Assembly: GCF_003334355.1 (NCBI RefSeq)
Contig: NZ_QOWP01000006.1
DNA from: Escherichia coli
GTDB taxonomy: Bacteria > Pseudomonadota > Gammaproteobacteria > Enterobacterales > Enterobacteriaceae
Length of the DNA stretch: 64,000 nucleotides
Strand: one strand, 5' to 3'
The translations under genes and the position numbers were made by a program. Below the pieces are notes generated by a model that made no database searches, had not been told where the DNA came from, and saw only the letters and a list, made by a program, of their open reading frames with translations. Below, in pieces: positions 3,464 through 12,103 of the stretch (position 1 is its first letter; the number at the start of each line of letters is the position of its first letter).

Positions 3464-4750
3464 TTACGCGTTATAGGCATTCTCGCCGTGGCTGTTGACA
3501 TCCAGCCCTTCTCGCTCCTGCTCTTCCGGTACACGCAGACCAACCGTCAGATCCGCCAATTTGTAGCCGATAAATGCCACAACACCGGACCAGACGATCG
3601 TAATGGCGATGCTTTCCAGCTGTACCAGCAACTGATGGCCCATCGTCACACCTTCAGCGAAGCCCACGCCGCCCAGCGAGCTGGCGGCAAAAATCCCGGT
3701 CATGATACAGCCGACAATGCCACAAACGCCGTGCACACCGAAGACATCGCAGGGATCATCCACCCGCAGCAAGCGTTTGAGCATGGTAACGCCCCACAAG
3801 CCCGCCAGACCAGCTACCACGCCGATAATCAACGCGCCGCCAACCCCAATGTAGCCGCAGGCTGGCGTCACGCCGACCAGACCGGCAATCGCGCCAGAAC
3901 ACGCCCCCAGCAGTGAAGGCTTACCACGCAGCGCCCATTCACCGAAGATCCAGCCAAGAATTGCCGCCGCCGTTGCGACCACAGTATTCACAAATGCCAG
4001 TGCCGCGATTTCATTCGCCGTGCCCGCTGACCCGGCGTTAAAGCCAAACCAACCGATATAGAGAATGGCAGTCCCGGTGAAGACCATCGGCAGGTTGTGC
4101 GGTTTAAACGCCTCTTTACCGAAGCCCACGCGTTTTCCTATCAGATACGCGCCCACCAGACCGGCGATTGCGGCGTTAATGTGCACCACGGTGCCACCCG
4201 CGAAATCCAGCGCACCGTGAGAAGCCAGCAAACCACCGCCCCACACCATATGCGCAATCGGAATGTAAGAGAGCGTCAGCCATACCACCACGAAAATCAA
4301 CACAGCTGAGAAGCGGATTCGTTCCGCCAGCGCCCCAACTATCAAGCCGACGGTAATGCAGGCAAACGATCCCTGAAACGCCACGTGGATATACTGATAA
4401 ATGCTGCCCATCACCGCCGTCAGTTCGATGTTTTTCAGCATCAACCAGTTAATGTTGCCGAAGAAGTTGTTGCCCTCACCAAACGCCAGCGAGTAACCGT
4501 AAACCACCCAGAGAATACAGACCAGTGCAAATGTCACCGTCACCTGCGTCAGCATCGACAGCACGTTTTTGCCGCGAATCAACCCACCGTAAAACAGGGC
4601 AATCCCCGGAATAGTCATAAACAGCACCAGCGCAGTACAAATCATCATAAACGCATTGTCGGCTTTATCGGCCACCGCAGGTGCAGCCATTACCAGTCCC
4701 GGAAGCATCGCCAGTGAAGCAAGCCCAGTTTTTATCGTCGCTATCTTCAT
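3464..4750 (-). CDS. amtB: ammonium transporter AmtB
   Basis: 428 aa; N-terminal signal peptide MKIATIKTGLASLAMLPGLVMA; Amt family membrane protein; directly downstream of glnK. Confidence 0.97.
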   Translation of the reverse strand: MKIATIKTGLASLAMLPGLVMAAPAVADKADNAFMMICTALVLFMTIPGIALFYGGLIRGKNVLSMLTQVTVTFALVCILWVVYGYSLAFGEGNNFFGNINWLMLKNIELTAVMGSIYQYIHVAFQGSFACITVGLIVGALAERIRFSAVLIFVVVWLTLSYIPIAHMVWGGGLLASHGALDFAGGTVVHINAAIAGLVGAYLIGKRVGFGKEAFKPHNLPMVFTGTAILYIGWFGFNAGSAGTANEIAALAFVNTVVATAAAILGWIFGEWALRGKPSLLGACSGAIAGLVGVTPACGYIGVGGALIIGVVAGLAGLWGVTMLKRLLRVDDPCDVFGVHGVCGIVGCIMTGIFAASSLGGVGFAEGVTMGHQLLVQLESIAITIVWSGVVAFIGYKLADLTVGLRVPEEQEREGLDVNSHGENAYNA

Positions 4751-4779
4751 TTTTCGTTCCTGTTGCTGTGTGCCAGAGA

Positions 4780-5118
4780 TTACAGCGCCGCTTCGTCGGC
4801 TTCGCCGGTACGAATACGAATGACGCGTTGCAATTCAGCGACGAAGATTTTGCCGTCGCCAATTTTTCCGGTGTAAGCCGCCTTACTGACGATATCGATC
4901 ACTTCATCGAGTTGGTCATCAGCAATCGCCACATCAATTTTTACTTTTGGCAGGAAATTGACGCTGTATTCCGCCCCCCGGTACAGCTCGGCATGCCCTT
5001 TCTGACGCCCGAAACCTTTCACTTCGGTGACGGTCAGGCCCTGAATACCAATGGAAGATAACGCTTCACGAACGTCTTCCAGCTTGAATGGTTTGATTAT
5101 CACGGTCACCAGCTTCAT
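4780..5118 (-). CDS. glnK: nitrogen regulatory protein PII-2 (GlnK)
   Basis: ORF track 4780..5256 trimmed to ATG at 5116-5118 with GGAGG SD at 5125-5129; 112 aa, MKLVTVIIKPFKLEDVREAL... Confidence 0.95.
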   Translation of the reverse strand: MKLVTVIIKPFKLEDVREALSSIGIQGLTVTEVKGFGRQKGHAELYRGAEYSVNFLPKVKIDVAIADDQLDEVIDIVSKAAYTGKIGDGKIFVAELQRVIRIRTGEADEAAL

Positions 5119-5169
5119 AGATCCCCTCCGGTCAGAATTCGGTAATGGTTCTGCTACACGAAGAAGGTA

Positions 5170-5187
5170 TTGCAAGCGGTGTGCCAG
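5170..5187 (-). promoter_or_regulatory. sigma54 (-24/-12) promoter of glnK-amtB
   Basis: Minus strand reads CTGGCAC-ACCGC-TTGCAA, a match to TGGCAC-N5-TTGCA; about 50 bp upstream of glnK ATG. Confidence 0.75.
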
Positions 5188-5298
5188 AAATGAAAAACGA
5201 GAAAGAGAGCAGGAAGTTAAGAAGTTTGAAAATGAAAACGCACTATGACAGTGCACAGTGCGTTACATTTTTGCACCAACGATGAAATATTGCGCTAT

Positions 5299-8845
<3,547 letters not shown>

Positions 8846-8874
8846 GCGTTGTGTCCTGACCTGATTCTGGATAT

Positions 8875-9333
8875 TTATTCGATGGGTAAAGAAGTGGTGT
8901 ATTTAATCTGTTCCATCGCGAAGCTGGAAGTGACGTCCGACAGCCCCGGCACGCTGTTTACCAGACGCTTATAAAACTCGTCGTAGCGTTTCATGTCGGC
9001 AACCTGGACGCGCATCAGATAATCGTATTCACCGGCCATGCGCCAGAACCCCAGCACTTCTGGCATTTCGGTAACCACCGTGACAAAGCGGCAATACCAT
9101 TCGCTGCTGTGATGTTGCGTTTTTATCAGCACAAAAGCGGTCAGGCCGAGGCCTATTTTTTCCGGATCCAGCAGGGCGACTTTGCCGATAAGGATACCGT
9201 CGTCCTCCAGCCGTTTCAGGCGCTTCCAGCAAGGGGTGGTTGTCAGATTAACGGCTTCAGCCAGTGCCTGCAAAGAGAGGGTGCAATCCTGCTGCAGTAA
9301 GGCCAGCAGCTTACGGTCAATTTTATCTAACAT
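8875..9333 (-). CDS. decR: Lrp/AsnC-family transcriptional regulator DecR (YbaO)
   Basis: ORF track 8875..9459 trimmed to ATG 9333 (152 aa, [31 protein letters not shown]...); 29 bp upstream of mdlA on same strand. Confidence 0.9.
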
Positions 9334-9484
9334 AGCCCTTCCACAGAGAATTTTTTTCTCTTTTAATTCTATTTTAAAGGTGAAATCACGACAATTTATT
9401 CTGTGCGGTTTAAACACCACGGCACAAAATGACAAATTCAACGCAAAAAAACCGGGCAATTGCCCGGTGCTGGAAGGGATCTCA

Positions 9485-10303
9485 TTATTCGGGGGAATAA
9501 GGTAGATGTGGATAGTCCAGCCAGTGCGTCAAATAGTGAGAGACAGCCTGATTTCGGCAATGTCCAATCACCGGTAAATGCGGGAGCTCCGCGCGCAGTT
9601 GCGGCATCGCATTGCCCATAATAAACCCGCTACCGACGCTGCCTAACATTTCGCGATCGTTCATCGCATCACCAAAGGCCATGCAATCGCGCAACGATAA
9701 ACCTAAATGTTGGGTCAGCACCGTCAATGCAGCGCCTTTATTGCAGCCCACCGGCAGCACTTCGAGGCAATCCGTGGCGGAAAAACACAAATGTGCACGC
9801 TCGCCTAATGCTTCGTATAGCTGGATCTGCAAGCGTGTAAGATCGTCGTGATCGCCACAGAAGCAGATCTTGGTGACACTGCCGAGTGGCATTTTTTTGA
9901 CATCGATTATCTGATAACGAAAACCGCTATAGACAAATGCCTGCAACAACGCAGGGATCTCTTTCCCGGTAAACCAACCGTCGTCATTGAAGATATGCAT
10001 GCTGGCTCGGGTATCCCATTGCTGATACAGCACCAGCTCCGCGACATCCGCAGGTAAATCATCACGATGTAAAAGTTCACCTTCCAGAGAATGCACGCGC
10101 GTTCCGTTGCCGGTAATCAAATATGCATCCAGCGATAGCGCCCCGAGAATATGCTGCATCTCCAGCGCATGACGCCCCGTGGCAAAAGTGAGGGTAATGT
10201 CGCGTTCACGCAGTCGCGCCAAAGTAGAGAGGGTTTTCTCACCTAAATGATGGTCAGGCATCAATAAAGTGCCATCCATATCAAATGCTGCCAGACGAGC
10301 CAT
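9485..10303 (-). CDS. cof: HAD-superfamily HMP-PP phosphatase Cof
   Basis: ORF track trimmed to ATG 10303 (272 aa, [14 protein letters not shown]...); HAD motif DMDGTL. Confidence 0.92.
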
Positions 10304-10402
10304 TTCTTTCTCCACTCTGTGACACGGTTAATGGTGATTGAGTATCACCTGATATATACGGAAGTAATAGTGAATAGTGAAATAATATTGTTCCGGGTTT
10401 AT

Positions 10403-12103
10403 ATGCGATTGCTCAACCGTCTTAACCAGTATCAACGTCTGTGGCAACCTTCAGCCGGAAAGCCGCAAACCGTCACCGTCAGCGAACTGGCCGAACGCTG
10501 TTTTTGCAGCGAACGCCATGTTCGTACGCTGTTGCGTCAGGCACAGGAGGCGGGATGGCTGGAGTGGCAGGCGCAGTCAGGACGCGGAAAGCGCGGACAA
10601 TTACGCTTTCTGGTCACGCCGGAATCGCTACGCAATGCGATGATGGAACAGGCACTGGAAACCGGAAAGCAGCAAGATGTGCTGGAGCTGGCGCAACTGG
10701 CCCCAGGTGAGCTGCGCACTCTGTTACAGCCGTTTATGGGCGGACAATGGCAAAACGATACACCCACGTTGCGTATTCCCTACTATCGCCCGCTCGAACC
10801 GCTACAACCAGGCTTTTTGCCCGGCCGTGCCGAGCAGCATCTCGCCGGGCAGATATTTTCCGGCCTGACCCGCTTCGATAATAATACTCAGCGCCCGATT
10901 GGCGATTTAGCGCATCACTGGGAAACCTCTACTGACGGGTTACGCTGGGACTTTTATCTTCGTTCAACCCTACACTGGCATAACGGCGATGCAGTAAAAG
11001 CCTCACACTTACACCAGCGATTATTGATGCTGTTACAACTGCCAGCACTGGATCAATTATTTATTAGCGTGAAGCGTATTGAAGTCACCCATCCGCAGTG
11101 TCTGACCTTCTTTTTACATCGCCCCGATTACTGGCTTGCGCACCGGCTGGCGAGCTATTGCAGCCATCTGGTGCATCCGCAATTCCCACTGATCGGCACT
11201 GGTCCTTTTCGCTTAACACAATTCACAGCGGAGCTGGTGCGCCTGGAGAGCCATGATTATTACCATTTGCGTCATCCGCTGCTTAAAGCGGTTGAGTACT
11301 GGATAACTCCGCCGCTTTTCGAAAAAGATTTGGGAACCAGTTGTCGGCATCCCGTGCAAATCACCATCGGCAAACCGGAGGAGCTGCAACGGGTCAGCCA
11401 GGTCAGTAGTGGCATCAGTTTAGGTTTTTGCTATTTAACGTTGCGCAAAAGTCCCCGACTCTCCCTCTGGCAGGCGCGAAAAGTGATCTCCATTATTCAT
11501 CAATCCGGTTTATTACAAACGTTAGAAGTCGGAGAAAACCTGATCACCGCCAGTCATGCATTACTGCCAGGCTGGACTATTCCGCACTGGCAAGTACCGG
11601 ATGAAGTCAAACTACCGAAAACCTTGACGCTGGTTTATCACCTACCGATAGAACTTCATACCATGGCAGAACGCCTACAGGCGACACTGTCAGCGGAAGG
11701 CTGTGAACTCACAATTATTTTTCATAACGCAAAAAACTGGGACGACACGACCCTACTGGCACACGCAGACCTCATGATGGGCGACAGATTAATTGGCGAA
11801 GCACCGGAATATACTCTGGAGCAATGGCTACGTTGCGATCCACTGTGGCCACATGTTTTCGACGCTCCAGCATATGCACATCTGCAATCGACGCTGGACG
11901 CGGTGCAAGTAATGCCTGATGAGGAAAACCGATTTAATGCCCTGAAAGCGGTTTTTAGCCAGTTAATGGCAGACGCGACGCTGACGCCGCTGTTCAACTA
12001 TCACTATCGCATTAGTGCCCCTCCCGGCGTGAACGGTGTGCGACTGACACCGCGCGGCTGGTTTGAATTTACCGAAGCCTGGCTTCCCGCGCCGTCGCAA
12101 TGA
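10403..12103 (+). CDS. ybaE: solute-binding-protein-like protein YbaE
   Basis: ORF track 10319..12103 trimmed to ATG 10403 (566 aa, MRLLNRLNQYQRLWQ...). Confidence 0.85.
   Translation: MRLLNRLNQYQRLWQPSAGKPQTVTVSELAERCFCSERHVRTLLRQAQEAGWLEWQAQSGRGKRGQLRFLVTPESLRNAMMEQALETGKQQDVLELAQLAPGELRTLLQPFMGGQWQNDTPTLRIPYYRPLEPLQPGFLPGRAEQHLAGQIFSGLTRFDNNTQRPIGDLAHHWETSTDGLRWDFYLRSTLHWHNGDAVKASHLHQRLLMLLQLPALDQLFISVKRIEVTHPQCLTFFLHRPDYWLAHRLASYCSHLVHPQFPLIGTGPFRLTQFTAELVRLESHDYYHLRHPLLKAVEYWITPPLFEKDLGTSCRHPVQITIGKPEELQRVSQVSSGISLGFCYLTLRKSPRLSLWQARKVISIIHQSGLLQTLEVGENLITASHALLPGWTIPHWQVPDEVKLPKTLTLVYHLPIELHTMAERLQATLSAEGCELTIIFHNAKNWDDTTLLAHADLMMGDRLIGEAPEYTLEQWLRCDPLWPHVFDAPAYAHLQSTLDAVQVMPDEENRFNALKAVFSQLMADATLTPLFNYHYRISAPPGVNGVRLTPRGWFEFTEAWLPAPSQ

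Follow-up and report, generated by a model that had tools for sequence, protein, structure and literature searches.

The 29-bp interval between decR (= cyuR, ybaO) and mdlA, at 8846..8874 of the window (the whole 64-kb stretch of Escherichia coli DNA analysed here), is with a probability of about 0.85 the intra-operon spacer of a single ~4.1-kb transcription unit, decR(cyuR)-mdlA-mdlB. The original prediction had read the three genes as one transcription unit. This reading is well supported by the gene geometry, the lack of a terminator, the synteny and the published co-expression, and from these we infer the read-through transcript itself. The locus had already been named the "cyuR-mdlAB operon" by Rodionova et al. 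2024 (Commun Biol 7:1160, PMC11408624), and no sequence difference was found between the published K-12 operon and the locus in the window. Earlier literature already covers the operon, its regulation by CyuR, SoxS and MarA, and the fact that E. coli has lost the desulfhydrase gene next to it. To the 2024 description the present analysis adds an order-wide synteny count, a conserved GTG start, the bounding terminators, a second conserved palindrome common to the upstream region of cyuP, and an asymmetry between the nucleotide-binding domains (NBDs) of the exporter. The 29-bp spacer is a real, ordinary internal junction of a known operon, and its significance rises only if the substrate of the exporter is tied to cysteine.

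The gene layout was taken from the RefSeq annotation of the identical E. coli stretch together with the sequence and its translation, and the coordinates of all features are collected in Table 1. Sequence reading and annotation both confirmed that decR and mdlA are separated by 29 bp on a shared strand, and the 8-nt overlap between mdlA and mdlB was found as predicted. The strand, a detail omitted from the original prediction, is minus in the window. The 4.7-kb stretch around the spacer is present in 5424 of 5426 complete E. coli genomes, with 100% identity in several of them, and the 129-nt decR-mdlA junction shows at least 99% identity in 5371 of the 5376 complete genomes holding it. Within the spacer, an AGGA Shine-Dalgarno sequence is located at 8857..8854, 8 nt ahead of the mdlA GTG, and mdlA would be translated from these weak signals of its own. 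The overlap with mdlB is consistent with translational coupling, by which the translation of mdlB may depend on that of mdlA.

Table 1 Features of the decR-mdlA-mdlB locus and its borders (window coordinates).
Feature	Coordinates	Strand	Description	Basis
decR (= cyuR, ybaO)	9333..8875	minus	TAA stop 8877..8875	RefSeq annotation of identical E. coli stretch and translation
mdlA	8845..7073	minus	GTG start 8845..8843	RefSeq annotation of identical stretch and sequence
mdlB	7080..5299	minus	ATG start 7080..7078	RefSeq annotation of identical stretch and sequence
cof	10303..9485	minus	upstream neighbour of decR	RefSeq annotation mapped to window
glnK	5118..4780	minus	after mdlB	RefSeq annotation mapped to window
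decR-mdlA spacer	8846..8874	minus	29 bp, ATATCCAGAATCAGGTCAGGACACAACGC	
mdlA/mdlB overlap	7080..7073	minus	8 nt, ATGCGTAG	
cof intrinsic terminator (putative)	9444..9468	minus	ACCGGGCAATTGCCCGGT then T7; hairpin-plus-T-run 9468..9451	scan
Terminator-like hairpin after mdlB	5264..5237	minus	11-bp stem, T-rich tail; begins 35 nt past mdlB stop	scan
Sigma-70-like promoter of decR	9366..9394	minus	TTGTCG, 17-nt spacer, TAGAAT	consensus scan
CyuR operator motif	9401..9379	minus	GAATAAATTGTCGTGATTTCACC; 1 mismatch; overlaps -35 element	published motif (PMC11408624)
Perfect inverted repeat GAGAA-AAAAA-TTCTC	9360..9346	minus	~+1..+15 of predicted transcript, just past predicted -10	
MarA/SoxS/Rob box	9422..9436	plus	gcacaaaatgacaaa	sequence match to published site

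When the borders of the block and the spacer itself were scanned for signals of termination, no terminator-like site was detected in the spacer by consensus scan. The RNA fold of 8800..8930 was not better than that of shuffled sequences (z = -0.47), and no Rfam family matched across 4500..10500, the gap and the 5' UTR included. The lack of a terminator hairpin in the gap, as originally proposed, was thus borne out by the terminator scan, the fold statistics and Rfam. Upstream, the intrinsic terminator of cof would isolate the decR promoter from cof, while the hairpin that follows mdlB is likely the 3' end of the transcription unit, ahead of glnK. Framed by these two hairpin-plus-T-run sites, the ~4.1-kb decR-mdlA-mdlB block has what appears to be the anatomy of a single transcription unit. 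Between the cof terminator and mdlA, the sole promoter-like site found by the consensus scan of the coding strand is the one upstream of decR, with its -35 element at 9394..9389 and its -10 element at 9371..9366. Transcription would begin at this single sigma-70-like promoter, RNA polymerase would pass the spacer, no terminator being present, and it would stop at the hairpin after mdlB. In several Enterobacteriaceae a GC hairpin without a U-tract is found in the decR-mdlA gap, which could attenuate the read-through there.

Over 1035 published RNA-seq samples, the expression of cyuR and mdlA is correlated with r = 0.71 (PMC11408624), a good value, yet less than is usual for a strictly single-promoter operon. 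A correlation short of 1 would fit an arrangement in which mdlAB has its own promoter, either in the 3' portion of decR or within the gap, so that the short distance reflects compact packing and decR and mdlAB are largely separate units. Such an arrangement would also agree with the iModulon assignments, which differ between cyuR (SoxS and MarA) and mdlA and mdlB (SoxS only) (PMC11408624), and with the 12 of 78 species whose decR-mdlA gap exceeds 100 bp and so leaves room for a promoter. However, no sigma-70-like match was found on the coding strand from 9366 to 8845, the decR body included, in a scan that covers consensus-like sites rather than weak or non-sigma-70 promoters, and no transcription start site within the gap is predicted in the published work (PMC11408624). 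The synonymous sites in the 3' half of decR vary freely among 80 species (relative codon entropy 0.66-0.95, with no conserved dip) and therefore give no sign of a conserved embedded promoter or hidden element. CyuR is described as an autorepressor (PMC11408624). Deletion of cyuR raises, rather than lowers, the expression of mdlA (PMC11408624), so the main mdlA promoter should not lie inside the deleted ORF; part of this rise could stem from polarity of the construct used for the deletion. Moreover, the induction by paraquat is lost in soxS and soxR mutants, with control assigned to SoxS/MarA (PMC11408624), yet the sole marbox is upstream of decR. Taken together, largely separate units are very unlikely, and the single decR-mdlA-mdlB transcription unit is the preferred reading. 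The operon call of 2024 was itself an inference, made without a junction-spanning transcript (PMC11408624), and the accessible portion of the SMRT-Cappable-seq supplement text (PMC6131387) contains no mention of mdlA, ybaO or mdlB.

The region upstream of decR carries several candidate regulatory sites. ChIP-exo has located CyuR upstream of cyuR, and the motif GAAwAAATTGTxGxxATTTsyCC was reported to bind CyuR in vitro in a cysteine-sensitive manner, as determined by fluorescence polarisation (PMC11408624). This motif has one match in the 64-kb window, against 0.01 expected. The pattern GAGAA-N5-6-TTCTC, of which the perfect inverted repeat near the predicted transcript start is an instance, likewise has a single match in the window (0.07 expected). 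One match was also found in a 12-kb stretch around K-12 cyuPA, upstream of cyuP (GAGAATATTCATTCTC; 0.03 expected), and 62 of 80 species have a looser form of the repeat at position -26 relative to the decR ATG. The cyuP upstream region is the other region bound by CyuR and is missing from the published motif scan (PMC11408624). Since the repeat is conserved and common to the upstream regions of decR and cyuP, it is a candidate for a second or core CyuR operator. DecR/CyuR would repress the unit through operators over the -35 element and probably over the start site. The marbox is identical to the MarA ChIP-seq site given for ybaO (PMC5684230), in Salmonella the homologous intergenic region holds a SoxS ChIP site (PMC10268841), and the box may serve to activate the decR promoter. 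Boxes of this MarA/SoxS type are typical of xenobiotic and oxidative-stress genes.

The protein encoded by decR (152 aa, WP_000884589.1) is annotated as DecR, a cysteine-sensing transcription factor of the Lrp/AsnC family. Its homologs possess the HTH_AsnC and AsnC_trans_reg domains (PF13412, PF13404, PF01037), and the nearest solved structure is the AsnC-family protein 3i4p (E 8e-51). An identity with Lrp itself was ruled out by the score against the Lrp equivalog model (96.9, cut-off 233).

MdlA and MdlB scored well above the cut-offs of the NCBIfam equivalogs SmdA (1266.8 bits, cut-off 845) and SmdB (1184.9 bits, cut-off 746), respectively, which relates them to SmdAB, the heterodimeric multidrug ABC exporter of Serratia marcescens. 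Five Serratia loci have the genes in the order decR-mdlA-mdlB, as in E. coli. The Walker B motif of MdlA (ILILDD) has no catalytic Glu and its signature is canonical (LSGGQ), while MdlB has a canonical Walker B motif (ILILDE) and a degenerate signature (LSVGQ). In a head-to-tail NBD dimer these motifs are complementary: LDD of MdlA pairs with LSVGQ of MdlB in a degenerate ATP site, and LDE of MdlB with LSGGQ of MdlA in a consensus one. MdlA and MdlB would thus make up a type IV ABC exporter that is an obligate, asymmetric heterodimer. The same pattern is found in the obligate heterodimers BmrCD and TM287/288. BmrC of Bacillus subtilis BmrCD (YheI/YheH) is the closest solved relative (8t1p/7m33, E 3e-147), and the other nearest solved relatives, ABCB1/4 and MsbA, are multidrug or lipid exporters. 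BmrCD is under the control of an antibiotic-sensing leader peptide, whereas MdlAB sits behind a transcription-factor gene. It was suggested in 2024 that MdlA and MdlB act independently (PMC11408624), which is unlikely in view of the complementary ATP-site motifs and the conserved 8-nt overlap.

CydDC is another heterodimeric ABC exporter with the fold of MdlAB; it was formerly assigned to the export of cysteine and glutathione and is now annotated as a heme transporter. Membership of MdlA and MdlB in the CydD/CydC family was rejected, as the matches (E 1e-67 to 1e-82) fall far under the cut-offs. The similarity between MdlAB and CydDC appears to be of superfamily level and would be uninformative on a thiol substrate. 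Among the known cysteine exporter families, it was the only homology to MdlAB that we found. EamA, EamB and AlaE have folds unrelated to that of MdlAB.

To describe the conservation of the locus, DecR was searched with one genome per species, which gave 80 loci across Enterobacterales. The genera covered include Citrobacter, Enterobacter, Klebsiella, Pantoea, Erwinia, Serratia, Yersinia, Pectobacterium, Dickeya, Hafnia, Budvicia, Xenorhabdus and Photorhabdus. The order decR, mdlA, mdlB on one strand was found in 79 of the 80 species. The decR-mdlA gap ranges from 6 to 242 bp with a median of 53 bp, and it is 60 bp or less in 47 of 78 loci. In 78 of 79 species mdlA begins with GTG, with a conserved CAGGA/TGGAA ribosome site ahead of it, and the 8-nt overlap of mdlA and mdlB recurs in 63 of 78 loci.

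Upstream of decR in most of these loci (72 of 81), at a distance of ~116 bp and in divergent orientation, lies a gene encoding a PLP-dependent L-cysteine desulfhydrase (cdsH/ccdA). Against the NCBIfam Cds1 model the encoded protein reaches 568 bits, slightly below the cut-off of 600, and it corresponds to Salmonella CdsH and Pantoea CcdA. The gene is absent from E. coli and E. albertii and from single loci of Entomohabitans, Erwinia, Pantoea and Edwardsiella. Nonaka and Takumi 2017 (PMC5423876) had already remarked that E. coli has no such gene beside ybaO. Given the frequency of the divergent arrangement, the ancestral unit would consist of the desulfhydrase gene opposite a sensor-exporter operon. 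In the cdsH-cutR/decR cluster of Salmonella and the ccdA-ccdR cluster of Pantoea ananatis, the regulator is the ortholog of DecR and shares an intergenic control region with the desulfhydrase gene, while in E. coli the latter gene has been lost. Two papers on cdsH/ccdA (PMC7767077, PMC9040844) do not mention mdlAB.

A separate protein search with DecR listed just close Enterobacteriaceae homologs, and the contexts beyond the order were read from MdlA representatives at falling identity. In Salinivibrio (55% identity of MdlA) the full arrangement is found, with a PALP gene divergent from AsnC-ABC-ABC-tesB. In Buchnera (47%) the order is lon-mdlA-mdlB-dnaX, without decR and without cdsH. In Pseudaeromonas, Pokkaliibacter, a Pseudomonadales genome and Listeria, where the identity is 45-49%, the ABC pair is preceded by unrelated genes and no AsnC-type regulator is present. 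As the distant pairs are found without an AsnC-type regulator and Buchnera is without decR, the decR-mdlAB linkage appears to be a single ancestral arrangement, inherited since, rather than one of repeated origin.

What MdlAB exports is the question in which the remaining value of the locus lies, given that most Buchnera genomes, tiny as they are, keep the pair and that throughout the order it is linked to a cysteine sensor. The statement that the substrate was not settled has held, as papers up to 2026 still describe a "predicted multidrug" exporter. The position behind decR makes the level of the exporter follow the promoter of the regulator and is not enough to identify the substrate, which need not be related to sulfur. 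The published assignment to antibiotic efflux is weak: in E. coli it consists of a lag-phase difference with cefazolin and vancomycin, seen for the mdlA deletion only, and complementation failed (PMC11408624). Other reports on mdlAB come from overexpression or from engineered anthocyanin export, and the drug efflux by SmdAB was seen when the pair was overexpressed in an E. coli host that is hypersensitive. We give somewhat better than even odds to a housekeeping or general exporter whose substrate (lipid, peptide or xenobiotic) is unrelated to cysteine, with the position of decR inherited and supplying only a low, stress-tunable expression under MarA/SoxS. This agrees with the survey of Buchnera transporters, in which mdlAB is present in all four genomes compared, absent from a fifth (BCt) and termed uncharacterised in function (PMC3246468). 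It also agrees with the weak conserved GTG start, which suggests a low constitutive synthesis, with a marbox bound by MarA and SoxS, with the drug phenotypes of SmdAB from Serratia and the data on anthocyanin export, and with the multidrug or lipid exporters among the nearest solved relatives. On the other hand, the drug phenotypes seen in E. coli are weak, complementation with mdlA failed, and a decR linkage this tight across the whole order and in Salinivibrio exceeds the neutral expectation.

The original prediction took the arrangement to favour a cysteine- or sulfur-related substrate for MdlAB. Such a substrate is a speculation of low probability, supported circumstantially by the linkage to the regulator and by the desulfhydrase gene of the ancestral unit. 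In its specific form, MdlAB would export cysteine or a derived thiol or sulfur compound and would be induced when DecR senses cysteine, which we regard as rather unlikely. It has in its favour that the operon is headed by a cysteine sensor whose binding to the cyuR upstream DNA responds to cysteine in vitro, and that a desulfhydrase gene stands opposite decR in most loci of the order and opposite the sensor-exporter unit in Salinivibrio as well. Co-control by SoxS would fit the danger of cysteine-driven Fenton chemistry, a hazard reportedly described by Park and Imlay in 2003. However, our literature searches found no cysteine phenotype, regulation or transport for mdlAB, and published RNA-seq data (Table 1 of PMC11408624) list no differential expression of cyuR at 5 mM cysteine. 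The effects reported so far have to do with drugs and anthocyanin, a MarA/SoxS box is present at the promoter, Buchnera retains mdlAB without decR or cdsH, the relatives at 45-49% identity have no upstream AsnC-type regulator, and the linkage appears to have arisen once and then to have been inherited.

A wider proposal, which we consider unlikely, is that cdsH and the divergent decR-mdlA-mdlB together make up a full cysteine-overload module, with DecR as the sensor, CdsH as the degrader and MdlAB as an ATP-driven exporter of cysteine or a derived thiol, persulfide or thiazolidine, of which E. coli would keep the sensor-exporter half. If true, this would provide a physiological substrate for an ABC pair present in four of five Buchnera genomes (PMC3246468). 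When the upstream regions are aligned, E. coli is seen to retain the old cdsH-decR intergenic region as far as the marbox, and the cof terminator abuts there.

Immediately 3' of the predicted -10 element of decR (also cyuR or ybaO, encoding the regulator CyuR), we found a perfect inverted repeat that is the single match of its type across the 64-kb window. When the 12-kb stretch around cyuPA of E. coli K-12 was searched, the sole match (8203..8218 of that stretch) lay upstream of cyuP, and the cyuP region is the other region bound by CyuR. Of 80 Enterobacterales species, 62 have a looser form of the repeat at position -26 relative to the decR ATG. Since cyuP is missing from the list of the published CyuR motif scan (Rodionova et al. 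2024, PMC11408624), the GAGAA-N5-TTCTC repeat may be the core CyuR operator.

Features of the decR-mdlA-mdlB region, in window coordinates
Feature	Position	Strand	Description
Terminator-like hairpin	5237..5264	-	11-bp stem, then a T-rich tail; between mdlB and glnK
MdlB	5299..7080	-	Walker B LDE; degenerate signature LSVGQ
MdlA	7073..8845	-	Walker B LDD, lacking the catalytic Glu; signature LSGGQ
mdlA start codon	8843..8845		GTG
Inverted repeat	9346..9360	-	GAGAA-N5-TTCTC
cdsH/ccdA deletion scar	9420..9470
cof terminator	9468..9451

Further upstream, the window carries the scar left by deletion of the cysteine desulfhydrase gene cdsH/ccdA, whose absence from E. coli is already published. In other genera, the marbox (MarA/SoxS box) upstream of the decR promoter is followed by the cdsH-decR intergenic region of roughly 116 bp; in E. 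coli, the homology to this region ends at the marbox, which is directly adjoined by the cof terminator. At the opposite border, the hairpin with the T-rich tail probably separates the decR-mdlA-mdlB operon from glnK-amtB.

The motifs of the two half-transporters pair a degenerate ATP site with a consensus one, the same pattern as in obligate heterodimeric exporters. This asymmetry is at odds with the published suggestion that MdlA and MdlB act independently.

Among the decR loci compared (L002-L081), GTG is the mdlA start codon in 78 of 79 species, the exception being TTG in Klebsiella oxytoca (L023). Such strong conservation of a non-ATG start suggests that the exporter is selected to be translated at a low level. 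Many Enterobacteriaceae (loci L003-L005, L008-L010, L012, L013, L024, L025, L033 and L034) possess a short GC-rich hairpin directly past the decR stop codon, such as TTCCGGCGCTCATTGCCGGAA, which is absent from the 29-bp decR-mdlA gap of E. coli. The stretch 3' of this hairpin is A-rich rather than T-rich, and a canonical intrinsic terminator was therefore ruled out; the element could affect RNA stability or act as a partial attenuator.

Roughly 1% of the complete genomes of E. coli (H20, NZ_CP116094.1, and about 50 others) do not have an intact decR-mdlA junction. The match in H20 breaks at query position 80, exactly the mdlA start, and resumes at another place in the record, pointing to an insertion at this site. 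In Escherichia albertii NBRC 107761 (L040 4380..4860), a 13-bp deletion near codon 127 shifts the decR frame, which consequently runs on into mdlA; either decR is a pseudogene here or the assembly is in error. Edwardsiella hoshinae (L070 8001..12023) is the sole sampled species without mdlAB after decR; cdsH is missing too, and downstream lie ORFs of 128 and 435 aa that, by size alone, resemble glnK-amtB. Buchnera aphidicola (CP135006.1) has kept mdlA-mdlB between lon and dnaX without a regulator, and a Salinivibrio-type contig (Vibrionaceae) carries the complete arrangement, with PALP divergent from AsnC-mdlA-mdlB-tesB.
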